From UHGV virus genome UHGV-1946849: DNA of 11,494 nt; one strand, written 5' to 3'. Each line of letters opens with the position of its first letter. The stretch's first letter is position 1. Below the pieces are notes generated by a model. It was not told the origin of the DNA and made no database searches. It saw only the letters and a list, made by a program, of their open reading frames with translations. The translations under genes were made by a program, and so were the position numbers. The stretch comes from a virus. Below, in pieces: positions 5-11,494 of the stretch.

Positions 5-81
5 CTAGCGAATCACTCTTTAAAGAGCGAGAAAAAAGGCATGGAACAATATTTTATGCCTTTGTATTAACATGAATTTAA
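5..81. repeat. Left attachment-site direct repeat (attL candidate)
   Basis: 77 bp identical base for base to 11418..11494; identity breaks sharply at position 4 versus 11417. Contains a 7-bp stem inverted repeat AAGGCAT/ATGCCTT. Confidence 0.8.
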
Positions 82-213
82 AAGATTTTATTCTTACTGT
101 TTCATTTTCTGTAAATCATATATCCTCAGTATTTGACATTCATCACTCTAGCGGGAACAATACGACACAATAAGACACCTGATGACTCTTTAAGAAACGA
201 AAGGGGGGCAATA

Positions 214-402
214 GTGTTAAGCACTGATCGGTTTATACGTGAAAAAGAATGCGAAAAACTAACCGGCCTTAGCCGTACGTGTCGCTACCGCCTGGAAAAG
301 GCCGGACAATTCCCATCACGTCGTAAACTTGGCGGTCGTTCCGTTGGCTGGTCTTTATCCGAGGTTCTGGCCTGGAAGGATAGCTGCAAGGCAGTTCATT
401 AA
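214..402 (+). CDS. alpA: AlpA-family winged-helix transcriptional regulator / excisionase-like protein (62 aa from GTG 214; the track ORF extends to TTG 133)
   Basis: Translation RFIREKECEKLTGLSRTCRYRLEKAGQFPSRRKLGGRSVGWSLSEVLAW aligns with E. coli CP4-57 AlpA as recalled. GTG at 214 follows the Shine-Dalgarno AAGGGGGG (201..208); the upstream TTG at 133 lies inside a TTGACA hexamer. Confidence 0.8.
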   Translation: MLSTDRFIREKECEKLTGLSRTCRYRLEKAGQFPSRRKLGGRSVGWSLSEVLAWKDSCKAVH

Positions 403-547
403 TCACGCTGGCGGCACGCAGCCGCCACACATCAATCATCTGAACACAGAGCTATAACCATGAAGATTGAATATACGCCAGAACGTGGGCGGGGATTCGT
501 TCGCCCTGGTGAAACTGAAAAACAACAAAATTGGGGTTTTTCAGGTA

Positions 548-582
548 TAAAAAAAGCGGCCCCGAAATGGAGCCGCCTTTCT
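548..582 (-). terminator. Hairpin terminator, mainly for the leftward operon, possibly bidirectional
   Basis: A-run 548..555, stem GCGGC 556..560 and GCCGC 572..576, then CTTTCT; on the minus strand the stem is followed by TTTTTTT. Confidence 0.45.
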
Positions 583-671
583 GAACAGATAACCCGCTGC
601 GCCGTTTGTGTGTGTGATCCCAAACATAAGCACGGGGATGATAGCCGTTATCAGGCTGGTGGGCAATGCAA

Positions 672-845
672 TCAGTCTGGTTCAGTTCGTTGCCATACCT
701 GCAATGAGCGCTTTTCCCTGTACTCTTTAAGGAATTGCTCAAGGGCAAAAGCACATGGCGCGAATCTTTCTGATTCATGCTCTATCTTTCTGCGCCGTCT
801 TTTCCGTGCCGGTGATAATGTTTTGGTCAATTCTTTATCGGTCAT
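672..845 (-). CDS. Hypothetical small basic protein (57 aa), second gene of the leftward operon
   Basis: Minus-strand ORF with AGGA 7 nt upstream of the ATG at 845; protein-like K/R/E-rich sequence MTDKELTKTLSPARKRRRRKIEH...; followed by the 548..582 terminator. The track start at 860 lacks a ribosome-binding site. Confidence 0.35.
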   Translation of the reverse strand: MTDKELTKTLSPARKRRRRKIEHESERFAPCAFALEQFLKEYREKRSLQVWQRTEPD

Positions 846-902
846 TGTGTTGTCCTGCATAGCAATGCGCCGTAATACCTTACACCACGGCGCTGATGGT
901 GA

Positions 903-1082
903 TTACTCTGGTTCTTTGGCCTTGCGCCGCTGGCGATATTCAACTTCTCGTTTTAATGCCGCAGTAACAAATTGCCCCGTACTTTCGCCAGGCATTTTTA
1001 CCGCCTCAACATTGTTCATAACTTCATGCGGAACCCTTGCCGCAACGGTTTGTGATTTTGCGTTTACCGCTTTTGTCGCCAT
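903..1082 (-). CDS. Ribbon-helix-helix (Arc/CopG-like) DNA-binding protein, 59 aa, candidate repressor
   Basis: Hand translation of the minus strand gives MATKAVNAKSQTVAARVPHEVMNNVEAVKMPGESTGQFVTAALKREVEYRQRRKAKEPE. It shows the R-V-P-x-E-V strand, helix, G-x-S-T turn, helix pattern; GAGGGG ribosome-binding site 8 nt upstream. Below the 60-aa cutoff, so absent from the ORF track. Confidence 0.5.
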   Translation of the reverse strand: MATKAVNAKSQTVAARVPHEVMNNVEAVKMPGESTGQFVTAALKREVEYRQRRKAKEPE

Positions 1083-1132
1083 GTGGTGTACCCCTCATAA
1101 AAAACAAATGCAGTATGCAGGAAAAAAAATAA

Positions 1133-1184
1133 GTGTTCAACACTTGACGTGTTTAACACCTGGGTTTAAATTGGTGTTCAACAC
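1133..1184. promoter_or_regulatory. Divergent promoter region with three palindromic operators GTGTT(C/T)AACAC
   Basis: 11-bp palindromes at 1133..1143, 1149..1159 and 1174..1184. Rightward -35 TTGACG at 1144..1149 and -10 TAAATT at 1167..1172 (17-bp spacer); operators overlap the -35 and the predicted start. Confidence 0.55.
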
Positions 1185-1281
1185 CTTGTTGGCGCAAGGT
1201 GCAGAAACGACGAAACCCGGCAGTGCGCTAACACTAACCGGGCTTCTAACCACCAACGATAGCGAAAGTATCGAGGTAGCT

Positions 1282-1482
1282 ATGAGAAATCATACCACAC
1301 ACCCGCAAGGGCGGGACTCGCACAACCTGAATAAATACATCTGGCGTTTTATCGCCCTGAGCACGGCACAACCGCGCGTGATTACCATTGAGGCCACCAG
1401 CGAACAGGAAGCACGCCAGCAATCTCCGGCTGGCTGCGTGATGGTATTTGCTGCCCGTATTCGTCAGGGGGTAGGCTTATGA
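1282..1482 (+). CDS. Hypothetical protein (66 aa), first gene of the rightward operon
   Basis: ATG at 1282 preceded by GAGGT; its stop overlaps the next start (ATGA). It is the 3' part of the 460..1482 track ORF, whose upstream portion looks non-coding. Confidence 0.4.
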   Translation: MRNHTTHPQGRDSHNLNKYIWRFIALSTAQPRVITIEATSEQEARQQSPAGCVMVFAARIRQGVGL

Positions 1483-1709
1483 GCCAGGAAATCACACTAC
1501 AACAGGCAGCAGAACGCGCCCACCAAATCGAAGTTATTTGCGCACTGGCAGAGGATTACCCTGGCATGATGACCGACAGCGAATCAGGGGCAATCATCGG
1601 CTTACTTAAACGCCTTAGCGGTGAGGTCTGCGTATTCCTGAGCGATGAACAGGAAAGAAGAACGCTTATTTCTAACGAAAAAAAATGCGGAGGGGTACAT
1701 GTGCAATAA
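1479..1709 (+). CDS. Hypothetical protein (76 aa)
   Basis: ATG with upstream GGGGGTAGG; start overlaps the upstream stop; same strand as the operon. Confidence 0.5.
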   Translation: MSQEITLQQAAERAHQIEVICALAEDYPGMMTDSESGAIIGLLKRLSGEVCVFLSDEQERRTLISNEKKCGGVHVQ

Positions 1710-1920
1710 AACCACACCGGACGCAGCCGCCGCCGCGCTCACTACGCTGATGCACGCGCTTATTGATATTTCTGTTATTGCTGACAGGGCGCATAAACAC
1801 GCAGCCAGAGAATCAGAATGCATCTTCCATTTAGCATTTGTGCAGCTAAAAGCCGATCAGGCACTGGATAAGGCCGGAAAAATTATCATGGCTGATGTGC
1901 AGGAGGTGCACCATGCATAA
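1699..1920 (+). CDS. Hypothetical protein (73 aa from ATG 1699; the track ORF starts at 1645)
   Basis: ATG 1699 follows GGAGGGG (1689..1695) with a 3-nt spacer; no recognisable motif. Confidence 0.45.
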   Translation: MCNKTTPDAAAAALTTLMHALIDISVIADRAHKHAARESECIFHLAFVQLKADQALDKAGKIIMADVQEVHHA

Positions 1921-2278
1921 TCTGTCAATTTCTGACCTTAACAGCATTCAGTTTGATGAGAAATTTACCGGGCAGTTGCTGGTCAATGTGGAGAACGGGC
2001 GCATAGTGCGTAATTATCACCTGCCGGATGGTGCAATTGCCGGAAGCGTTGAAGCATTGCTGGAACTGGCGGAACGTGCGCGACTGATTAAGCCGTCAAC
2101 GAGCCATCACGATGATGATCTGCATTTTACCGGATGTATGGTGAGTCACTACGAAAACGGCGTCGAGGTATCCTGTGAACGGCTGCGTGATGATTGCTGT
2201 TTCGGCACACTGCCGGAATTTATCGAGTTGCTGACCAGTTGCGGTTATCAGGTCATTCAGGGGGGTAAACATGCGTGA
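1913..2278 (+). CDS. Hypothetical protein (121 aa from ATG 1913; the track ORF starts at 1895)
   Basis: AGGAGG ribosome-binding site 6 nt upstream of ATG 1913; overlaps the preceding stop. Confidence 0.5.
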   Translation: MHNLSISDLNSIQFDEKFTGQLLVNVENGRIVRNYHLPDGAIAGSVEALLELAERARLIKPSTSHHDDDLHFTGCMVSHYENGVEVSCERLRDDCCFGTLPEFIELLTSCGYQVIQGGKHA

Positions 2279-2504
2279 TGATCGTTTTAATTCCCTGAAA
2301 CAGGAATTTTCCGGCGTTCCTGATGATGCGGCTGATGCGCTTTCGTCAATGCCAGAACTTATTAGAGCGGCTTTTTTCTTACTTTCCACGAGAGAATATA
2401 AATCAACGGGGCTTGATGTACTGAATATCGCCGCCGATTATGCGGAATATGTGGCAGAGGCGCGTTATAGAAGAAAATTTCCTGAGGATGTAAGCCATGC
2501 GTGA
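2271..2504 (+). CDS. Hypothetical protein (77 aa)
   Basis: ATG after GGGGGGTAAAC; ATGCGTGA start/stop overlap with the upstream gene. Confidence 0.5.
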   Translation: MRDDRFNSLKQEFSGVPDDAADALSSMPELIRAAFFLLSTREYKSTGLDVLNIAADYAEYVAEARYRRKFPEDVSHA

Positions 2505-2730
2505 TATTTACCACGAAACAATAGACCGCGCATTTCTTGCACTTTCTCACAGTGAAAACATGCTGGAAATATTGCGCATATGGCTTGAAACACTTGGCGA
2601 CAATGAACGCGACAAACAAAAATCAAGAATTGCCACGGCATTAATAACGCTTCTTGAGCCTGTAATAATGGAACTGCAAGAAATAGATCTATTGCACGAC
2701 AGATATAAAGAACAGCACACCGGAGAATAA
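2497..2730 (+). CDS. Hypothetical protein (77 aa)
   Basis: Same ATGCGTGA overlap junction as at 2271; acidic, helical-looking sequence. Confidence 0.5.
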   Translation: MRDIYHETIDRAFLALSHSENMLEILRIWLETLGDNERDKQKSRIATALITLLEPVIMELQEIDLLHDRYKEQHTGE

Positions 2731-2735
2731 AAATA

Positions 2736-3035
2736 ATGAAACTTAAATATTCTGGCTTAACTGCCAGTGGCAACACTCACCCTAAATTTACGCGCGGCGA
2801 TATTTACCGCGACCAGTACGGCGGCACGGTAATGATTAAGGGCGTGGAAGAACGGCGCGTAACCTACCGCCGTGAAGGTTACGAATATGATTGCGTGATG
2901 CCTGTTTATCAGTTCCGGCGTGATTTTTCTCTGGTACAGACCGCGCCGCATAACGTGTCCACCAGCAACGCCAGGGCACGGGCAAACATCCAGAAGCTGA
3001 AAACCATGATTAACGGATTCAGGGGTAAAAAATGA
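2736..3035 (+). CDS. Hypothetical protein (99 aa) immediately upstream of and coupled to the primase gene
   Basis: GGAGA ribosome-binding site; stop overlaps the primase ATG (ATGA). Confidence 0.55.
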   Translation: MKLKYSGLTASGNTHPKFTRGDIYRDQYGGTVMIKGVEERRVTYRREGYEYDCVMPVYQFRRDFSLVQTAPHNVSTSNARARANIQKLKTMINGFRGKK

Positions 3036-4786
3036 AACTGGCACCGAACGTAAAACAGCAGTCACGCGGCATAAAACACAAAGAAACAGAAGTCATTATT
3101 TTTGCGGGTAGTGATGCCTGGTCACACGCAAAACAATGGCAGGGACATGACGCGCGTATGGCCGGAGATAATGAGCCTCCTGTGTGGCTTGGGGAGCAGC
3201 AGTTATCCGAACTGGATAAGCTGCAAATTGTGCCGGAAGGCAGAAAATCCGTGCGCATATTCAGGGCCGGATATCTTGCGCCAGTAATGATAAAGGCGAT
3301 TGGTCAGAAGCTGGCGGCGGCAGGCGTACAGGATGCAAATTTTTACCCTGATGGTATGCACGGTCAGAAGGTGGAGAACTGGCGCGAATATCTGGCCCGT
3401 GAGCGCCAGAATCTTTCTGATGGTCTGGTCATTGAGCTTCCGGTAAAGCAAAAGGCGCAACTTTCGCAGATGGCGGACAGTGAGCGCGCGCAGCTGCTTG
3501 CCGATCGCTTTGATGGCGTTTGCGTACATCCTGAAAGTGAAATCGTTCACGTATGGCGCGGCGGGGTATGGTGTCCGGTCAGCACAATGGAACTTAGCCG
3601 CGAAATGGTGGCGATCTATTCAGAGCACAGGGCCACTTTCAGCAAGCGCGTAATCAATAACGCCGTGGAAGCGTTAAAAGTTATTGCCGAACCAATGGGC
3701 GAGCCGTCCGGCGATTTGTTGCCGTTCGCCAATGGTGCGCTTGACCTGAAAACGGGGGAATTTTCCCCGCACACGCCGGAGAACTGGATCACCACGCACA
3801 ACGGCATTGAGTACACGCCACCAGCACCAGGGGAGAACATCCGCGATAACGCGCCAAACTTTCATAAATGGCTTGAGCACGCAGCCGGAAAAGACCCGCG
3901 CAAGATGATGCGTATATGTGCCGCGCTGTACATGATTATGGCGAACCGGTACGACTGGCAGATGTTTATTGAGGCCACCGGAGACGGCGGGAGCGGTAAA
4001 AGTACATTCACACACATAGCCAGCCTTCTGGCAGGGAAACAGAACACGGTAAGCGCTGAAATGACATCGCTTGATGATGCTGGTGGACGTGCGCAGGTTG
4101 TCGGGAGTCGTCTTATCGTCCTGGCTGACCAGCCGAAATATACAGGCGAAGGAACGGGCATCAAGAAAATCACGGGCGGTGACCCCGTGGAAATTAACCC
4201 GAAATACGAAAAGCGTTTCACGGCGGTAATCAGGGCGGTGGTGCTGGCGACCAACAATAACCCGATGATATTCACCGAACGGGCCGGAGGTGTGGCACGT
4301 CGTCGCGTGATTTTCCGTTTCGACAATATCGTCAGTGAGGCCGAAAAAGACAGGGAGCTACCGGAAAAGATCGCGGCTGAAATCCCTGTCATTATCCGCC
4401 GATTGCTGGCGAACTTTACCGACCCTGAGAAGGCACGGGCTTTACTACTGGAACAGCGTGACGGTGATGAAGCTCTGGCAATAAAGCAACAGACGGATCC
4501 GGTTATTGAGTTTTGCCAGTTCCTGAATTTTCTGGAGGAAGCACGCGGCCTGATGATGGGCGGCGGTGGCGATTCAGTGAAGTACACGACCAGAAACAGC
4601 CTTTACCGCGTCTATCTGGCGTTTATGGCGTACGCAGGCAGGAGCAAACCGCTAAACGTAAATGACTTTGGCAAGGCTATGAAGCCAGCCGCGAAAGTTT
4701 ACGGACATGAATATATTACGCGGAAAGTTAAGGGAGTAACGCAGACTAACGCAATAACAACAGACGAGTGCGACGCGTTTTTATAA
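3032..4786 (+). CDS. Replication protein: P4-family primase C-terminal domain / D5-N plus SF3 helicase (584 aa)
   Basis: Walker A GDGGSGKST, a D5-N-like segment LPFANGALDLKTGEF...NGIEY and an SF3 motif C VVLATNNNP; size and layout match Pri-Rep proteins of P4-like elements and PICIs. Confidence 0.88.
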   Translation: MKLAPNVKQQSRGIKHKETEVIIFAGSDAWSHAKQWQGHDARMAGDNEPPVWLGEQQLSELDKLQIVPEGRKSVRIFRAGYLAPVMIKAIGQKLAAAGVQDANFYPDGMHGQKVENWREYLARERQNLSDGLVIELPVKQKAQLSQMADSERAQLLADRFDGVCVHPESEIVHVWRGGVWCPVSTMELSREMVAIYSEHRATFSKRVINNAVEALKVIAEPMGEPSGDLLPFANGALDLKTGEFSPHTPENWITTHNGIEYTPPAPGENIRDNAPNFHKWLEHAAGKDPRKMMRICAALYMIMANRYDWQMFIEATGDGGSGKSTFTHIASLLAGKQNTVSAEMTSLDDAGGRAQVVGSRLIVLADQPKYTGEGTGIKKITGGDPVEINPKYEKRFTAVIRAVVLATNNNPMIFTERAGGVARRRVIFRFDNIVSEAEKDRELPEKIAAEIPVIIRRLLANFTDPEKARALLLEQRDGDEALAIKQQTDPVIEFCQFLNFLEEARGLMMGGGGDSVKYTTRNSLYRVYLAFMAYAGRSKPLNVNDFGKAMKPAAKVYGHEYITRKVKGVTQTNAITTDECDAFL

Positions 4787-4800
4787 TTTTTTGTAATTGC

Positions 4801-5026
4801 TGTCTACCCTGTCTACCTGAGTAAAGAAAAATACATTTAATTCAGTGCATTAAGTTAGGTAGATAGCCTTTTTTTACTGTCTACCCACTATCTACCCTCT
4901 CTACCTGATTTTACCTGAATCAGACAGGGAGGTAGACACGGGGTAGATAGTGGATAAAAGCACTCTACCCCGCTGAAAGCCGCGCCATTACTGGTATGAG
5001 GGCCACTAAGGTAGATAAGGTAGACA
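4801..5026. repeat. Iteron cluster, candidate replication origin / cis replication region
   Basis: At least 11 copies of (G/T)TCTACC(C) in both orientations (forward at 4802, 4811, 4879, 4890, 4900, 4964; reverse GGTAGA at 4858, 4931, 4942, 5010, 5019), non-coding, directly downstream of the primase gene. Confidence 0.6.
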
Positions 5027-5074
5027 AGGGGAGGCACAACTCAAAACTTTTTAAACGAGGGGGTAAAAATAAAT

Positions 5075-5353
5075 ATGCACACTTCAGGGAAATTTAATAA
5101 ATCACTCAAAAAACGCAGAGACAGAACAGAACCGAAATATCGCGCGTTAGACATGACAGAGCACGCTTTAAAGGTGGCAATCAGAACGATAGACCGCCAC
5201 GCGGGGGAAGGATACGCGAAAGCACATCCCGAACTGATAAGCGCATTCATGACCACGACGGCGGCAAATTTTGCCACGCTGACAGAGCGGGAGATTGCCG
5301 AAGCGGAACAGGTAACAACCATCAACGTTAAAACCGGAGAGGTGGAATCATGA
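5075..5353 (+). CDS. Hypothetical protein (92 aa), coupled to the ssb-like gene
   Basis: GAGGGGG ribosome-binding site upstream; stop overlaps the next ATG (ATGA). Confidence 0.55.
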   Translation: MHTSGKFNKSLKKRRDRTEPKYRALDMTEHALKVAIRTIDRHAGEGYAKAHPELISAFMTTTAANFATLTEREIAEAEQVTTINVKTGEVES

Positions 5354-5772
5354 CAGCACAGATAGCAGCTTACGGGCGGCTGGTGGACGACCCGCAGGTA
5401 AAACAGACCAGCAAGGGCACACCGATGACGCTGGCGCGTATGGCGGTCCCCCTTCCGTGCAGCCAGGCAGATGACGGAACGGCGACGATGTGGTTATCCG
5501 TCCTGGCATTTGGCAGACAGGCCGAAGCACTGGAAAGGCACCGCAAGGGTGAACTCCTGAGCGTGGCGGGTAACATGCAGATCAGCCAGTGGACTGGGCA
5601 GAACGGAGAAACGCGGCAGGGCTGGCAGGTTATCGCAGACAGTGTAATCAGTGCGCGAACGGCGCGACTGGGCGGCAAAAAAGGTCAACAGGGCCAGGCT
5701 ACTGACGCGCTGAACAGGGCAAAACAACAGGCGGGGAATGATGATCCGTACGGGGATAACATACCGTTTTAA
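5350..5772 (+). CDS. ssb: Single-stranded DNA-binding protein homologue (140 aa)
   Basis: OB-fold segment WLSVLAFGRQAEALERHRKGELLSVAGNMQISQWTGQNGETRQGWQVIADSV aligns with E. coli SSB [52 protein letters not shown]; Gly/Gln-rich linker; C-terminal DDPYGDNIPF resembles the SSB acidic tip DDDIPF. Confidence 0.8.
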   Translation: MTAQIAAYGRLVDDPQVKQTSKGTPMTLARMAVPLPCSQADDGTATMWLSVLAFGRQAEALERHRKGELLSVAGNMQISQWTGQNGETRQGWQVIADSVISARTARLGGKKGQQGQATDALNRAKQQAGNDDPYGDNIPF

Positions 5773-5787
5773 GCGACGAGTGACAGA

Positions 5788-5811
5788 AGCCGGAGCAATC
5801 CGGCTTTTTTA
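5788..5811 (+). terminator. Rho-independent terminator after the ssb-like gene
   Basis: Stem GCCGGA (5789..5794), loop GCAA, stem TCCGGC (5799..5804), then TTTTTT. Confidence 0.7.
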
Positions 5812-5860
5812 CGGGTCCTCCTGGCGGGGTGGGCCTGAACACGGGGCGGGAAGCGCGGAA
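5811..5860 (+). other. Degenerate cos-like relic (cosQ-like with a disrupted cosN)
   Basis: ACGGGTCCTCCTGG...ACGGGGCGGGAAGCGCGG parallels the intact copy at 8253..8300 (ACGGGTCCTTTCCGG...ACGGGGCGGCGACCTCGCGG), and the preceding terminator hairpin is duplicated too. Confidence 0.5.
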
Positions 5861-5990
5861 AAAAGCGCATTTTTGTGATTTTATCGTCATCATCATCATG
5901 AGCGTAATTTATTGTTTTTAATTGTTTTGATGCAAAAAAGATGATGGTTGTGGTTAATTTTCGTTCGACATCTTTGCAGGCAGATAAAAA

Positions 5991-6027
5991 AGCCCGATAA
6001 GGTCAGAGGTGGCTTATCGGGCTTTTG
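5991..6027. terminator. Strong hairpin, bidirectional terminator-like
   Basis: Perfect 11-bp inverted repeat AGCCCGATAAG / CTTATCGGGCT with an 11-nt loop, flanked by an A-run upstream and TTTT downstream. Confidence 0.5.
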
Positions 6028-6103
6028 CATATGAGGCTTTTTGGTGCACTGACACACATGAGCGGGATCATCATTTCATAATTTGCAACACAACTCAATA
6101 TCA

Positions 6104-6152
6104 TTGCACAAAACGCAATCCTGATTATAATCAGAGCTGGATGAACATCCAG
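6104..6152 (+). promoter_or_regulatory. Candidate sigma-70 promoter of the capsid operon with a 16-bp palindrome at the predicted start
   Basis: -35 TTGCAC (6104..6109), 16-bp spacer, -10 TATAAT (6126..6131); perfect palindrome CTGGATGAACATCCAG at 6137..6152. Confidence 0.5.
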
Positions 6153-6187
6153 TTATGATTTTTTAAGTCGAAGAGGAATTTCTTACT

Positions 6188-6394
6188 ATGGCTGAAGAGA
6201 AAAAAGGCGGTGTTTCGGTGTACATAAGCCCCGAAATCGTGGAGGTGCTCAAGCAGCGCCACAAAAAAAACTATGAGGCTGGCGTGGCGGCTGGACTGGA
6301 TCCGCTGATGACGCCGGAGCCGTCGATAGGTTCACTTGTACGCTCTTATTTACTTGCGGCGCTTGGGATGCATAAAAATTATGGGGGTGAATAA
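6188..6394 (+). CDS. Hypothetical small protein (68 aa) translationally coupled to the capsid gene
   Basis: AAGAGGA ribosome-binding site; stop TAA overlaps the capsid ATG (TAATG). Confidence 0.6.
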   Translation: MAEEKKGGVSVYISPEIVEVLKQRHKKNYEAGVAAGLDPLMTPEPSIGSLVRSYLLAALGMHKNYGGE

Positions 6395-7449
6395 TGGCAG
6401 GCAAAGCAACGGCACTTAACACTAACCAGCTTTTCATGTACCTGAATCGCGGGGATATTGCGGATTTTAAATTCAGCCCTCTGTTTACTACGCTGTTTTT
6501 CCCGAACGTGGCGACATTCAGCACGCAAAACATCATGCTGGATACCCTGGACATTGAAGAAGTCACCATGTCGGCGTTTTGTTCGCCTATGGTGGGTAGC
6601 CAGGTTCAGCGCGATAAAGGGTACGAAACCAGCACGATTAAACCTGGCTACATGAAGCCAAAGCACGAAATCGATCCAACGAAAACCATCATGCGCATGG
6701 CTGGAGAAGATCCGGCACAGCTTAACGACCCTACCTATCGCCGTATGCGCCTGATTACTGGCAATATGCGCCGCCAGATAAACGCCATAAAAGCGCGCGT
6801 GGAATGGCTGGCGGTAAATGCGGTAACGACCGGAAAAAACATCATTGAGGGCGAAGGCATAGAGCGCTATGAAATCGACTGGAAGATACCGGAAAAAAAC
6901 ATCATAGAGCAGGCCGACGGGAAAAAATGGTCAGCGCAGGACAAAGAAACCCACGATCCAATCTATGATATCGAACTATACGCCGATCAGGCTGGTTGCC
7001 CCGCAAACGTCATGATTATGGGCGCTGAGGTATGGCGAACGTTACGCAGCTTTAAAAAATTCCGTGAGCTGTACGATCTTTCCCGTGGTTCAGAATCCGC
7101 CGCCGAACTGGCCTGTAAAAACCTGGGCGAAGTGGTGAGCTTTAAAGGCTATCTTGGTGATCTGGCCCTTATCGTCTATTCCGGCAAATACACTGACAGC
7201 GATGGTACCGAAAAATATTTCCTTGAGCCTGATTTGCTGGTCCTAGGTAACACCAACAATAAAGGGCTGGTGGCCTATGGTGCGATAATGGATCAGGAAG
7301 CGGTAAGAACGGGCGCAACACAAAACATGTTTTACCCGAAAAACTGGATTGAGGACGGCGATCCGGCGATTGAGTACGTGCAGACACACAGTGCACCGCA
7401 GCCGGTACCGGCAGATATTCGCAAATTTGTTACCGTCAAAATTGGTTAA
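6394..7449 (+). CDS. Major capsid protein, lambda gpE-like (351 aa)
   Basis: Colinear similarity to lambda E as recalled: FSPLF..LFF, KPGYMKPKHEIDP, DPTYRRMR, GSESAAELACKNLGEVVSFKGYLGDLALIVYSGKYTD, LVLGNT, YPKNW, GDPA. Confidence 0.9.
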   Translation: MAGKATALNTNQLFMYLNRGDIADFKFSPLFTTLFFPNVATFSTQNIMLDTLDIEEVTMSAFCSPMVGSQVQRDKGYETSTIKPGYMKPKHEIDPTKTIMRMAGEDPAQLNDPTYRRMRLITGNMRRQINAIKARVEWLAVNAVTTGKNIIEGEGIERYEIDWKIPEKNIIEQADGKKWSAQDKETHDPIYDIELYADQAGCPANVMIMGAEVWRTLRSFKKFRELYDLSRGSESAAELACKNLGEVVSFKGYLGDLALIVYSGKYTDSDGTEKYFLEPDLLVLGNTNNKGLVAYGAIMDQEAVRTGATQNMFYPKNWIEDGDPAIEYVQTHSAPQPVPADIRKFVTVKIG

Positions 7450-7461
7450 CGGGGGGATTCT

Positions 7462-7797
7462 ATGGACACTCCATACATTGAGTTATTTGCAGGCAGTCAG
7501 CGGGTCGCCACGACGCTGGTACATTTTGCCGCTGATGCTGGCGTTATTCAGGAATTTACCCCGCTGATGCTGGCAGACAATGGCGAGTTTAAGCCGTGGG
7601 ATGGTCAGGAATCTGGCAAGGCTGTTTATCTGACCTCGTACCCTGTGGACACGTCAAAGCAGAAATCAGCACAGTGTTACAAGACGGGGATTTTCAATAT
7701 TGCCGCCGTTAACTGGCCTGAGAGCGTCGACACCGATGCGAAAAAATGCGCCGCCTTTGCGGGTTCCGGCGTATCCGTTCAGCCGCTGGCCCGATAA
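7462..7797 (+). CDS. Head decoration protein, lambda gpD-like (111 aa)
   Basis: FTPLMLAD, WDG, YKTGIFN, WPES and KKCAAFAGSG match the lambda D motifs TPLMLDT, WDG, YKSGTFR, WPEA and KKRTAFAGT. Confidence 0.82.
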   Translation: MDTPYIELFAGSQRVATTLVHFAADAGVIQEFTPLMLADNGEFKPWDGQESGKAVYLTSYPVDTSKQKSAQCYKTGIFNIAAVNWPESVDTDAKKCAAFAGSGVSVQPLAR

Positions 7798-7809
7798 GCA
7801 GGGGGAACG

Positions 7810-8223
7810 ATGGCAACGAATGAAAGCGTCATGACGCTACCGCTGGCGAGTAAATTTAAAGCCGAAGCGCGGGCAATGGCTGACAGAGGTTTATCAACCT
7901 ACGAGGCCGTATATCAACTCAACAAACTGGAAGAGCAGGACAAGCCGCGCGCTGATGCGATTATGGCGCTTCATGAACATAACGACTATCAGCCGCTGTT
8001 ACGTGCAATGGCAAACGTGCCATGTATTAGCGTCGATAATGCTCGTGAAATCCTGAACATGACCATAGAGCAGGAGCGCCCAAAGGTTGCGCCGGAGCTT
8101 ACCGCAGCCTTTGAAAACTTTATGGACATGCACAGCCCGAAAGCCGTATCACCCGGCATGGCATACGACGGCAGAAACCAGGGCGATGAAGGCGACGTCG
8201 ATCGCATACTGAAAACCATCTGA
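7810..8223 (+). CDS. Hypothetical protein (137 aa), last gene of the capsid operon
   Basis: GGGGGAA ribosome-binding site; followed by the terminator at 8229..8252. Confidence 0.6.
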   Translation: MATNESVMTLPLASKFKAEARAMADRGLSTYEAVYQLNKLEEQDKPRADAIMALHEHNDYQPLLRAMANVPCISVDNAREILNMTIEQERPKVAPELTAAFENFMDMHSPKAVSPGMAYDGRNQGDEGDVDRILKTI

Positions 8224-8228
8224 CATAA

Positions 8229-8252
8229 GGCCGGAGAAATCCGGCTTTTTTT
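8229..8252 (+). terminator. Rho-independent terminator
   Basis: Stem GCCGGA (8230..8235), loop GAAA, stem TCCGGC (8240..8245), then TTTTTTT; near-identical to the terminator at 5788..5811. Confidence 0.7.
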
Positions 8253-8310
8253 ACGGGTCCTTTCCGGCATATGGACCCGTTACGGGGCGGCGACCTCGCG
8301 GGTTTTCGCT
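8253..8310 (+). other. Lambda-type cos site (cosQ and cosN with the 12-nt cohesive end GGGCGGCGACCT at 8285..8296) with a truncated cosB
   Basis: ACGGGTCCTTTCCGG...GTTACGGGGCGGCGACCTCGCGGGTTTTCGCTATTTATGA matches the lambda cos junction as recalled; it then diverges to CGTTTTTCCGTG, and the Nu1-like gene starts only about 90 bp downstream. Confidence 0.85.
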
Positions 8311-8385
8311 ATTTATGACGTTTTTCCGTGAAGGTGACACCACCACCACTTGATTAATATTTAACCATGCAGTTAAGGTAACATT

Positions 8386-8820
8386 ATGATTGATAAAGCT
8401 TGTTTTGTAAGTCAGCAGGAAATAGCTGAACATTTCAAGGTTAACAGAACCACTATTCGCGCATGGACCAAACAGGGGATGCCGTATCTTAATGCGGATC
8501 GCGGAAAGTCTGGCGGTTATCACATCGGGCATACATTGCTTTGGTCTTCAGGTAAAAGCCGTCTTGAGACCATCAGATATCACGTAGAAACCAGTGCGCT
8601 GGAAAAAATTATGTTTGCCAGGCTGCTTTCATCTGAGCGTGACGAGTACTCCAGTGAAGAAACAGAACATCGATTTGATGAAGGTTTGCAGATTTACGGC
8701 TATTCACCGGAAGATGTGAGCAAGGCACGAAATAAAATGGCTGGCTTTCTGGCTGGGTGGCGTCATGCCATAAGCGTTCGCCGTGCCAGCATGGAGCAAT
8801 CAGCCGATACAGAACAGTAA
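8386..8820 (+). CDS. Small terminase (lambda Nu1)-like protein, candidate Rpp-type packaging-redirection factor (144 aa)
   Basis: N-terminus VSQQEIAEHFKVNRTTIRAWTKQGMPYLNADRGKSGGYHIGHTLLWSSGKS aligns with lambda Nu1 VNKKQLADIFGASIRTIQNWQEQGMPVLRGGGKGNEVLYDSAAVIKWYAER; no large terminase gene follows. Confidence 0.78.
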   Translation: MIDKACFVSQQEIAEHFKVNRTTIRAWTKQGMPYLNADRGKSGGYHIGHTLLWSSGKSRLETIRYHVETSALEKIMFARLLSSERDEYSSEETEHRFDEGLQIYGYSPEDVSKARNKMAGFLAGWRHAISVRRASMEQSADTEQ

Positions 8821-8887
8821 AGCCGATAACTTGTTAATCACTCGCAGCAATGCATGTGATTTGTGCACACTTTCGGTTAACTGGTTC

Positions 8888-9066
8888 GATGTCCGGTTTT
8901 AGTGTCTGTTTTTTGCGCATGTCCGGTTCATGGAAAGCATGTTTTTATATTTTTCATATGGTTAACTTGCAGAGAAACCGGACATGGATCCCGAAAAATT
9001 TTCATAAATAGTGAAAACGCGCGAGGTCGCCGCCCCGTAACGGGCCATAATTCCAGGAAGGACCCG
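8888..9066 (-). other. Second lambda-type cos site in inverted orientation, with a distinct cosB made of three ATGTCCGGTT elements
   Basis: Reverse complement of 9001..9066 reads ACGGGTCCTTCCTGG...GTTACGGGGCGGCGACCTCGCGCGTTTTCACTATTTATGAA (cohesive end at 9024..9035); R-like elements at 8889..8898, 8919..8928 and inverted at 8976..8985, with an AT-rich spacer between. Confidence 0.75.
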
Positions 9067-9099
9067 ACGACACCAGACTATCAGAGCGATGGGGGCACA

Positions 9100-9381
9100 A
9101 TGACAGAAGCCGAACTACTGGGATTAATCCGCCGCGTTACCGGAATCAGCCAGCAGCATGACGAACAGGCCACGCAGCCGGACAGCGTGACCGCCGAAAA
9201 TTACGCGCGTGTGGTTGCTGAGGTGATGCGCCGTGATGGTATCCAGCTTAATGATGTGGATATGCGCAACATACGGATCCGCGTTCTTGAAATGCTGGCC
9301 TACAATCGCCGCGTGGCACTGTATCGGGAAACGGAGAAAATTACGTACCACTGGAAGAAGCCGGAGCGGTTACGGCGTTAA
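9100..9381 (+). CDS. Hypothetical protein (93 aa from ATG 9100; the track ORF starts at 8902 inside the cos sequence)
   Basis: ATG 9100 preceded by GGGGG; upstream in-frame sequence is the inverted cos site. Confidence 0.5.
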   Translation: MTEAELLGLIRRVTGISQQHDEQATQPDSVTAENYARVVAEVMRRDGIQLNDVDMRNIRIRVLEMLAYNRRVALYRETEKITYHWKKPERLRR

Positions 9382-9397
9382 CGAGTAGCGACATACC

Positions 9398-9556
9398 GTG
9401 ACGGAGAGTGACAACCAGTGACACGCCGTGACAAAAGACGGTTTAACCGTTAATTAAAAATTGACGGGATTTTGTGCTTTCCGGACGACGTGACCAACGT
9501 CATTTTTTAGCGAAAAGTTCTGATTAAGGTCATTGTCTGAATGGTCATAATGACCA
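9398..9556. promoter_or_regulatory. Array of GTGAC-family binding-site repeats
   Basis: Four GTGAC copies at exactly 10-bp phasing (9398, 9408, 9418, 9428), an inverted pair GTGACCAACGTCAT (9490..9503), and the palindrome TGGTCATAATGACCA (9542..9556). Confidence 0.5.
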
Positions 9557-9717
9557 CTCCTACAAAACAGGTAAAGCCCACCAGCCTGATTAACAGTTAA
9601 CCGGAAAAAAAATCCGGTAGCCCCGTTATGGGGATCCCCATATCAACATTAACGCCCCTCATGAATTAGCGCGCTTCCCCCTGGAAAGATGACCCGCCTG
9701 TATATTTCTTGTGTCTA

Positions 9718-10012
9718 TTTGTTCCACGTTGTTTCATACAGTGCACCGAACGGTGTAGTCACTGGTGTAGTCATTTTGCGATTTATGGCACTTTTTGTAG
9801 TGCAAATCATTTAATTAAATCAATGCGTTAAGTGAAATTAGTTATATATAACAGCATTTTATCATTTAGTGTTTTTTGCTGTTTCATAATGTTTCAGGCT
9901 GTGCATTATGTTTTTGATTATCAACAGATTTGTGATTTTCCTTGTTCCAGCTTGTTTCACGTTGTAGCCCTTTGTGCAACGATCGGTGTAGTCACTGGTG
10001 TAGTCACTTTTT
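9718..10012. repeat. Duplicated element of about 60 bp upstream of int, each copy ending in tandem GGTGTAGTCA repeats
   Basis: CGGTGTAGTCACTGGTGTAGTCA at 9751..9773 and 9984..10006 with similar upstream context, flanking an AT-rich stretch of about 200 bp. Confidence 0.6.
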
Positions 10013-10031
10013 CGTAAAGAGGGGGTAAAAC

Positions 10032-11261
10032 GTGAGCAGAGCAATGAACAAACTGAGCGATACCTTGCTAAGGAAACTTCATGGTAAGCCAGCGGAGAAA
10101 AACACGTTTTATAGTGATGGCGGAAACCTGAGCGTGAAATATTTAACATCAGGGAAATTGACCTGGTATTTCACATACAGGGCCGGAACGGGAAGGGAGA
10201 CACGACCCGAACGCATTAAGCTGGGAAGTTATCCTGATCTGAGCCTGAAAGCAGCCAGGGAAAAAGCCGCACAGTGTCGCACATGGCTGGCTGAGGGGAA
10301 AAATCCACGTCATGAGATGAATTACACCGTACAGGAAGCGTTAAAGCCCGTAACGGTTGGCGATGCGCTCACCTACTGGCTTGAGTATTACGTAAAGGAA
10401 AACCGCGTGGATTATATCGCCCTGAAAAGGCGACTTAATAATCACGTAATACAGCAGATTGGTGCTATGCCGCTGGATAAATGCGAGCTACGGCACTGGC
10501 TGGCCTGTTTTGACCAGGTGGTAAAGCGAACGCCTGTTACTGCCGGATTCGTGCTACAGGCGTGCAAACAGGCGCTTAAGTTCTGCCGTAGGCGGCGCTA
10601 TGCAATCAGCAACGTTCTGGACGATCTGAACGTTGCGGACGTTGGGAAAAAACCGGATATAAGCGAACGTGTCTTAAGTAACAAAGAACTTGGCGAATTA
10701 TTGCAGGCACTGGACAAAAAAATATTCTCCCCTTACTACGTCGCGTTAATCCGCCTCCTGATTGTCTTCGGAGCCAGAACGGTAGAACTGAGGTTATCGG
10801 AGATCGGGGAGTGGGATTTTACGGAAATGCTATGGACCGTTCCGAAGGAGCACAGCAAAACGAAGGTCGCAATATTCCGGCCCATACCGGAAGCGATCCT
10901 GCCGTTCGTCACGCAGCTGGTGGAGCAGAACAGGCACACGGGCTTATTGCTGGGGGAAGTGAAACAGGAGGCCAGCGTATCGCAGTATGGAAGATTAGCG
11001 CACAGGAGGCTTAATCACCCTCACTGGTCACTGCATGACATCCGGCGCACCTTTACAACCATGCTGAACGATTTAGGCGTTGATCCGCATGTCGTGGAGC
11101 AGCTTACAGGCCACCAGATGCCAGGAATGCAGCGAGTTTATAATCATTCCCGTTATCTGGATGCGAAACGCAATGCGCTGGATATGTGGACGGAGCGGTT
11201 AGGGATACTGGCGGGAACACATGAAAACGTAACCACGCTACCCGTAGCCAGAAGAAAATAA
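10032..11261 (+). CDS. int: Tyrosine recombinase, P4-type integrase with N-terminal arm-binding domain (409 aa)
   Basis: N-terminal arm-binding-domain pattern (DGGNLSVKYLTSGKLTWYFTYR...IKLGSYPDLSLKAAREKA); catalytic region with R..HDIRRT..LTGH..Y residues; GTG start after GAGGGGG. Confidence 0.93.
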   Translation: MSRAMNKLSDTLLRKLHGKPAEKNTFYSDGGNLSVKYLTSGKLTWYFTYRAGTGRETRPERIKLGSYPDLSLKAAREKAAQCRTWLAEGKNPRHEMNYTVQEALKPVTVGDALTYWLEYYVKENRVDYIALKRRLNNHVIQQIGAMPLDKCELRHWLACFDQVVKRTPVTAGFVLQACKQALKFCRRRRYAISNVLDDLNVADVGKKPDISERVLSNKELGELLQALDKKIFSPYYVALIRLLIVFGARTVELRLSEIGEWDFTEMLWTVPKEHSKTKVAIFRPIPEAILPFVTQLVEQNRHTGLLLGEVKQEASVSQYGRLAHRRLNHPHWSLHDIRRTFTTMLNDLGVDPHVVEQLTGHQMPGMQRVYNHSRYLDAKRNALDMWTERLGILAGTHENVTTLPVARRK

Positions 11262-11278
11262 TTTTTTTCGTGTTTTTT

Positions 11279-11355
11279 CAGTATGCGCATACTGGATATG
11301 CGAACAGATACAACGTGCAACAATGAGCAACAATGTGGAACAACTACGAACAAGA
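11279..11355. promoter_or_regulatory. Candidate integrase arm-type / accessory sites next to the right repeat
   Basis: Perfect 16-bp palindrome CAGTATGCGCATACTG (11279..11294) and (C/G)AACAA repeats at about 10-bp phasing (11302..11355, including GCAACAATG twice). Confidence 0.4.
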
Positions 11356-11417
11356 GGCGAAAAAGCGTACGGATTTATAAGTAGCTGATTTTTAATGTGT
11401 TACTGGTTTTTTGTACA

Positions 11418-11494
11418 CTAGCGAATCACTCTTTAAAGAGCGAGAAAAAAGGCATGGAACAATATTTTATGCCTTTGTATTAACATGAATTTAA
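11418..11494. repeat. Right attachment-site direct repeat (attR candidate)
   Basis: Identical to 5..81; the window ends at the repeat end, so the identity could extend further. Confidence 0.8.

Follow-up and report, generated by a model that had tools for sequence, protein, structure and literature searches.

Positions 4787-5074 of the 11,494-bp stretch of DNA analysed here (the window) very probably serve as the vegetative origin of replication of a Gram-negative phage-inducible chromosomal island (PICI) of the EcCICFT073 type, acting by the mechanism proposed below. The assignment is supported by published experiments on a close homologue and by sequence comparison, and all defining features of such an origin that can be examined in sequence were found. 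The region contains a dense field of the hexamer TCTACC in both orientations and lies directly downstream of the gene for a P4-alpha/D5-like helicase (3032-4786, 584 aa).

The initiator encoded in the window is identical to the EcCICFT073 protein in 580 of 584 positions (99%), and the intergenic regions of the two islands are approximately 97% identical, with all 11 TCTACC cores in the same positions. In EcCICFT073, the model PICI of Gram-negative hosts, which comes from E. coli CFT073, the pri-ori segment maintains a temperature-sensitive plasmid at the restrictive temperature (Fillol-Salom 2018, PMC6092414); in this plasmid assay, deletion of pri leaves no colonies and deletion of ori leaves significantly fewer. 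When the p15A origin of a cosmid was swapped for the PICI origin, the cosmid replicated only with the primase expressed in trans (Brödel 2024, PMC11338833). The homologous fragment, taken from the plasmid sequences in the supplement of that paper as transcribed from PDF text, maps to window positions 4787-5068. The original prediction, which named the repeat field as the likely site of action of the 3032-4786 protein, is thus supported by experiments on near-identical DNA, and the check that it proposed, replication with the primase supplied in trans, had already been published for the homologous fragment, with a primase-dependent outcome.

The layout agrees with what is known of this class of origins. 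The field begins 17 bp past the stop codon at 4786, in the position by which the class is defined (PMC6092414). PICI origins have been described as an AT-rich region flanked by iterons (PMC6092414; for SaPIs, PMC9371898), and here the + strand iterons at 4803 and 4812 and the - strand iteron at 4858 lie around an AT-rich spacer at 4818-4857.

The island and its relatives

Comparison with sequenced genomes shows the window to be a tqsA-integrating Gram-negative PICI of 11.4 kb, in its circular (attP) or tandem form. Positions 5-9856 match the chromosome of E. coli EcPF5 with 98.5% identity, and positions 9848-11494 match the DNA just upstream in the same chromosome with 99.7% identity; the window is thus a circular permutation of the 11.4-kb island in tqsA. 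The 9-bp junction ATAACAGCA at 9848-9856, where the capsid-side end of the island meets its integrase side, has the sequence that is listed as the att core of the tqsA-integrating PICIs EcCI042 and EcCIK1516 (Table S1, PMC6092414). The two ends of the window are joined by a 77-nt direct repeat (5-81 and 11418-11494). This end repeat, together with the position of the att core, indicates a circular (attP) or tandem form and not an integrated copy with chromosomal flanks.

All island genes are on the + strand. The order is integrase (int, 10032-11261), HTH regulator, Icd-like gene, small ORFs, DUF4222, "DNA primase family protein" and the repeat field, followed by a small ORF, SSB, a lambda-E-type major capsid protein, a decoration protein and att. 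The properties by which PICIs are recognized, i.e., int, an alpA-type regulator, pri, a single direction of genes, an att site of their own, helper cos sites and a size of about 10-20 kb, were all found, the HTH regulator being annotated in the EcPF5 copy of the island. Two exact copies of the lambda cosN 12-mer GGGCGGCGACCT are present in opposite orientation, at 8285-8296 (+) and 9024-9035 (-); the pair fits the two putative cos sites of EcCICFT073 and packaging by a lambdoid helper. The 20-mer cos sequence given in the supplementary figure text of PMC6092414 has no match in the window. A distant-mode search of phage genomes with positions 4600-5200 returned no matches; the element is a chromosomal island and not a deposited phage.

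EcCICFT073 and the present island agree in gene order and have the same neighbours around the origin (DUF4222, pri, ori, small ORF, SSB, capsid, decoration protein). Their origins differ by a handful of substitutions, mostly in the spacers and in the base adjacent to the core (GGTAGAT versus GGTAGAC). The integrase and the attachment site are different (ycfD-phoQ in CFT073, tqsA here), and perC, a gene of EcCICFT073, is absent here. With EcCIK1516 and EcCI042, the island shares the att core, the tqsA target and the size of 11-11.4 kb.

An ORF of 340 codons, defined mechanically at 460-1482, resembles Icd-like cell-division inhibitors in its last 50 or so residues only. In EcPF5, the corresponding DNA is annotated with two Icd-like features, a pseudogene and a short gene, and with a YlcI/YnfO gene on the other strand; the 340-aa ORF is probably not one real gene.

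The repeat field

The features of the origin and of the flanking genes are as follows.

3032-4786, +: initiator gene, pri/rep of the PICI, annotated as 'DNA primase family protein', 584 aa; Pfam D5_N, DUF5906 (SF3 helicase core) and Pox_D5
3032-3451, +: N-terminal ~140 codons, variable domain, no detectable primase signature
4493-4768, +: winged-helix origin-binding domain, codons 488-579; match to PDB 1KA8 (P4 alpha), E 6.7e-7
4787-5074, no strand: intergenic region, very probable ori of the island; ~97% identical to the EcCICFT073 region from pri to the next gene; published conditional-ori fragments map to 4787-5068
4803-4808 and 4812-4817, +: iterons 1 and 2, left outer pair, TCTACC; mirror partners 5019-5024 and 5010-5015; kept in relatives
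4818-4857, no strand: AT-rich spacer, likely melting site; 90% A+T at 4822-4841
4858-4863, -: iteron 3, GGTAGA on the + strand; mirror partner 4964-4969
4880-4905, +: iterons 4, 5 and 6, TCTACC at 4880, 4891 and 4900; 4880 and 4891 mirror 4942 and 4931, 4900 is unpaired
4905-4923, no strand: small palindrome CTGATT-N7-AATCAG, read from the sequence and also called as an inverted repeat; centre 4914
4931-4936 and 4942-4947, -: iterons 7 and 8, GGTAGA
4964-4969, +: iteron 9, TCTACC; within an invariant run, 4964-4970
4973-4993, no strand: conserved non-iteron block CTGAAAGCCGCGCCATTACTG, in the GC-rich right-hand spacer
5010-5015 and 5019-5024, -: iterons 10 and 11, right outer pair, GGTAGA
5075-5772, +: genes that follow in the replication module, coding for a 92-aa protein (phrog_1231) and an SSB homologue; same order in EcCICFT073

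TCTACC occurs 12 times in the window, both strands counted, and 11 of these copies fall within 4803-5024; the only other one is an isolated copy at 10781, within int. In 200 dinucleotide-preserving shuffles of the whole window, the mean was 2.5 copies and the maximum 7, against the 12 observed. At the base composition of the window, a stretch of 222 bp should contain about 0.11 copies (Poisson P of at least 11 copies, 7e-19). Six copies are on the + strand (starts at 4803, 4812, 4880, 4891, 4900 and 4964) and five on the - strand (GGTAGA on the + strand, at 4858, 4931, 4942, 5010 and 5019), which bears out the claim that 4801-5026 is non-coding DNA with at least 11 copies in both orientations. 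The gap between the stop codon of the 584-aa gene at 4786 and the ATG of the next gene at 5075 is 288 bp, and positions 4787-5040 contain no ORF of 50 aa or longer.

The conserved repeat unit is the hexamer TCTACC. The base on its 5' side is G in five copies, A in four, C in two and T in none, so the 7-mer (G/T)TCTACC that had been put forward describes just 5 of the 11 copies. The longer form TGTCTACC occurs five times, and core-flanking bases drift among variants, with, for example, CCTCTACC replacing TGTCTACC.

Ten of the 11 iterons form five +/- pairs with one exact dyad centre at 4913.5 (4803/5019, 4812/5010, 4858/4964, 4880/4942 and 4891/4931); the small central palindrome has its centre at 4914. 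When 11 oriented sites were placed at random, not one of 20,000 simulations gave even four pairs with a common centre. The spacers do not follow the same symmetry: the left-arm spacer 4818-4857 is rich in A+T and its mirror image, 4970-5009, is rich in G+C.

Near-consensus DnaA boxes number 12, against 10.5 expected (chance level), and the only one of them that falls within the field, at 4949-4957, is not kept in relatives. No terminator was found by the promoter/terminator scan. A classical iteron plasmid origin of the pSC101/RK2/F type, with direct repeats of 17-22 bp and DnaA boxes, was considered and rejected: the units here are 6-8 bp long and occur in both orientations, and DnaA boxes are at chance frequency.

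The initiator protein

Residues 141-579 of the initiator align with residues 324-762 of P4 alpha (40% identity, E 6e-113, BLASTP), and residues 194-432 match SaPI5 PriRep (PDB 7OLA, E 3.7e-15). The helicase and origin-binding functions of the protein are well supported by these similarities. The C-terminal winged helix would, by homology and by the covariation described below, be the part that recognizes TCTACC.

The N-terminal part of the protein is a different matter. Residues 1-140 give no BLASTP alignment with the primase region of P4 alpha (hhalign probability 0.9%) and no Pfam match even at E<=10, and a single-sequence structure model of low confidence (pLDDT 62) resembles generic alpha/beta folds only. 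These ~140 residues are also the most variable part of the initiator among relatives. The term 'primase', which the earlier reading had applied to the 3032-4786 product, is therefore an annotation label, as no primase domain is detectable.

Conservation of the iterons and covariation with the initiator

An alignment of seven E. coli variants has 53 invariant columns out of 66 in the cores and 57 out of 160 outside them (Fisher p = 7.5e-10); the fields are ~80-100% identical, and the statistic is inflated by shared ancestry and by the core-anchored alignment. The block CTGAAAGCCGCGCCATTACTG at 4973-4993 is conserved outside the cores, with 20 of its 21 columns (runs 4973-4982 and 4984-4993) invariant in these seven variants, in which other spacers have diverged.

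We also scanned one genome per species for relatives of the initiator and kept 80 loci from the 350 relatives obtained. For the covariation set, a locus was required to have one hexamer in at least six copies within 330 bp downstream of the stop codon; this set comprises 43 loci, among them the window, three E. coli variants and P4. The main repeat classes and the wing motifs of their initiators are as follows.

GGTAGA, 19 loci: wing motif G[VRK][TRK]QTN, with one exception
GGTGAA(CA), P4 and nine Xenorhabdus loci: wing motif KQGI[QR][TS]N
ATGAACAC, five loci (E. coli MB56, Buttiauxella, Escherichia sp., Edwardsiella, Rahnella): RG[VI]VTN in four
ACTGTCC, three Serratia loci: wing motif RGRIQSN

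The GGTAGA loci come from the window, E. coli variants, Shigella, Rosenbergiella, Xenorhabdus, Symbiopectobacterium, Yersinia, Raoultella, Pantoea and Kluyvera. In each of four bins of helicase identity, binding domains are more similar between loci with the same repeat than between loci with different repeats (54.6 versus 37.6%, 50.7 versus 37.8%, 59.8 versus 43.7% and 90.9 versus 68.0%), a statistic that shared ancestry inflates. Across the 43 loci, the iteron sequence thus appears to track the C-terminal DNA-binding domain. Locus L090, of the GGTAGA class, has a differing wing motif and is an exception.

Two other loci, L019 and L020, are near-identical in the C-terminal 60 residues (RGMVTN versus RGVVTN in the wing) and have different dominant repeats, GGTATACA and ATGAACAC, respectively. 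This pair may be a natural specificity switch, or it may be an exception to the covariation.

The arrangement of the sites is conserved along with their sequence. Slightly varied, the layout ++ / AT-rich / - / +++ / -- / + / -- is seen again in several genera of Enterobacterales, namely Rosenbergiella, Xenorhabdus, Symbiopectobacterium and Raoultella. Stated more generally, the GGTAGA class has two direct iterons, an AT-rich spacer, one inverted, two to four direct, two to three inverted, one direct and two inverted iterons, and this order is kept in most of the loci mapped, down to 52% helicase identity. The AT-rich block between the first ++ pair and the first - iteron is found in most of the GGTAGA-class relatives mapped.

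In E. coli ETEC1734 (L010:2488-2803), where the binding domain is 60% identical, 11 GGTAGA sites are present with the halves of the field swapped: the right half comes first, then the left half with the AT-rich spacer, then a RepA-helicase pseudogene. This suggests that the halves of the field are separable modules.

In another 32 relatives (L030-L059 and others, mostly from Xenorhabdus, Proteus and Photorhabdus), no hexamer reaches six copies within 330 bp downstream of the initiator gene; most of them have the wing motif KKGYSYN. The origins of these elements may lie elsewhere, or may be built of longer, more degenerate repeats.

The covariation bears on another function that such an array could have. 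It might be mainly a transcriptional operator, bound by the initiator, AlpA or another regulator and serving the downstream SSB-capsid genes, with the origin activity secondary or located elsewhere. The field does lie directly upstream of the ribosome-binding site and start codon of the next gene, and iteron-binding initiators, such as those of iteron plasmids, often autoregulate. The genes of the island are, in addition, transcribed one way through the field (PMC6092414). However, no sigma-70-like promoter was found on the + strand of the field, the single match on the - strand being at chance level; the iteron varies with the C-terminal domain of the initiator itself; and the homologous fragment alone gives primase-dependent replication in the published assay. 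We consider a primarily regulatory role improbable.

Relationship to the origins of P4, SaPIs and other replicons

The field functions like the P4 alpha/iteron and SaPI Rep/ori systems and is evolutionarily related to them. The likeness to P4 lies, first, in the protein, with homologous helicase and origin-binding domains (40% identity over 440 residues, and the match to 1KA8), and, second, in the DNA, where short iterons of 6-8 bp occur in both orientations directly downstream of the initiator gene. The P4 type I iteron is indeed TGTTCACC, as the original prediction had it and as verified in NC_001609. It shares a 3' ACC with the iterons of the field, and a 5' TGT with five copies of them; the shared TG prefix is not conserved among relatives.

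There are also differences from P4. The iteron is TGTTCACC in P4 and TCTACC here, and GGTGAA is present in fewer than six copies in the field. P4 needs two clusters, ori (9086-9809) and crr (4291-4590), about 4.5 kb apart, whereas there is a single cluster here. The P4 crr consists of two 120-bp direct repeats, and the present field is one array with dyad symmetry. P4 alpha has an N-terminal primase region of ~320 aa, of which no counterpart was found in the window protein. The rest of the element is also not P4-like, having a lambda-type capsid and cos and no sid, psu or delta. Because of the different iteron, the one cluster in place of two and the lack of an alpha-type primase domain, the field is not a P4 ori or crr. 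The proposed resemblance to the P4 cis replication region therefore holds in part: the homology of the helicase and origin-binding domains and the position of crr directly downstream of alpha stand, and the element itself is a PICI with one cluster in place of the P4 ori and crr.

The same comparison speaks against the view that the field is a cis enhancer of the crr kind, with the true origin in a second iteron cluster elsewhere in the island. A field directly downstream of an alpha homologue does occupy the position of crr in P4, and the homology of the initiators points the same way, but there is no second cluster in the window, where the only other TCTACC is the one at 10781, and a fragment of ~280 bp from the homologous island is sufficient for plasmid replication when the protein is provided in trans. 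An enhancer role is very unlikely.

In SaPI origins, which lie directly 3' of rep, 6-12 short iterons of opposite orientation flank an AT-rich region (PMC9371898). The iterons are bound by the C-terminal winged helix of SaPI Rep, and Rep and PriRep are self-loading helicases (PMC9371898). The likeness to the present system is in the arrangement of iterons 3' of rep and in the homologous helicase core (7OLA, E 3.7e-15); the iteron sequences are different and the protein is distant. The AT-rich region of SaPIs is roughly central, whereas here it is in the left arm and its mirror-image spacer is GC-rich.

The origins of SV40 (large T antigen) and papillomaviruses (E1) also combine inverted pairs of short sites with an SF3 helicase that carries its own origin-binding domain. 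The origin-binding domains and the sequences are unrelated to those described here, and the resemblance is an analogy only.

Nature of the symmetry and proposed mechanism

The array could also work as a folded single strand (for instance, a non-coding RNA, or a priming signal in hairpin or cruciform form) in place of a set of double-stranded binding sites. Long imperfect inverted repeats are present in the field, and as single-stranded DNA it folds better than its shuffles (z = -4.5). Yet mirror complementarity is perfect in the cores (30 of 30 positions) and is seen in only 33 of 83 positions elsewhere, which argues for a symmetry of binding sites and not for a true palindrome, and the inverted cores themselves account for the folding signal. 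The spacers diverge without compensation while the cores are kept. A search of Rfam at a lenient threshold gave only sub-threshold matches of the field to generic miRNA-hairpin models, and these are due to the inverted iterons. A structural element in place of binding sites is, we believe, highly improbable. Packaging signals (cos/pac) or integrase arm-type sites, which may come to mind because satellites carry helper cos sites and because short repeats in both orientations are found in P4 attP, are the least credible reading of all, as the cosN copies (8285-8296 and 9024-9035) and att (9848-9856) are 3-5 kb away from the field.

The preferred reading is that of a replication origin, and its mechanism can be sketched as follows. 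The P4-alpha/D5-like SF3 helicase encoded at 3032-4786 would bind the 6-bp TCTACC iterons through its C-terminal winged helix, as homology and covariation suggest. The five mirror pairs around one centre would set initiator oligomers head to head, as at other origins served by SF3 helicases. Iterons 2 and 3 are separated by 40 bp of AT-rich DNA, which would then melt without ATP, according to the SaPI model, and the self-loaded helicase, by analogy with SaPI Rep and given the geometry of the sites, is expected to unwind the DNA in the 3' to 5' direction. The excised circle would be copied by the host polymerase before packaging via the lambda-type cos sites.

Two observations complicate this scheme. 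The AT-rich spacer is off the dyad centre, so the picture of a head-to-head double hexamer may be too simple; and the initiator has no recognizable primase domain to account for the priming step. The recurrent layout, the AT-rich spacer in the left arm only, the conserved block in the mirror position and the lack of a primase domain allow a more elaborate version, which we offer as speculation and consider rather unlikely. In this version, the 11 sites would form a fixed layout for asymmetric loading, the block at 4973-4993 would recruit a host factor or mark the first priming site, and the primers would be made either by the DnaG of the host or by the variable N-terminal domain of the initiator, which would then have an undescribed fold.

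Implications

An origin of this type has already been described, and it is already used as a tool; the first reading of the field was correct and ordinary. In biotechnology, such an origin serves as a conditional origin for non-replicative DNA delivered by phage. The value of the present analysis is mainly in correct annotation, i.e., in recognizing the window as a known PICI and the field as its origin. To this may be added, modestly, the exact mirror geometry, the conserved non-iteron block, the link between iteron and DNA-binding domain across genera and the lack of a detectable primase domain. For the island itself, the origin allows amplification after induction by a helper phage, ahead of packaging via the lambda-type cos sites. 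The region comprising the end of the initiator gene and ori has matches in 588 of the 5,426 complete E. coli genomes searched, and the origin is central to the spread of these very common satellites of E. coli.
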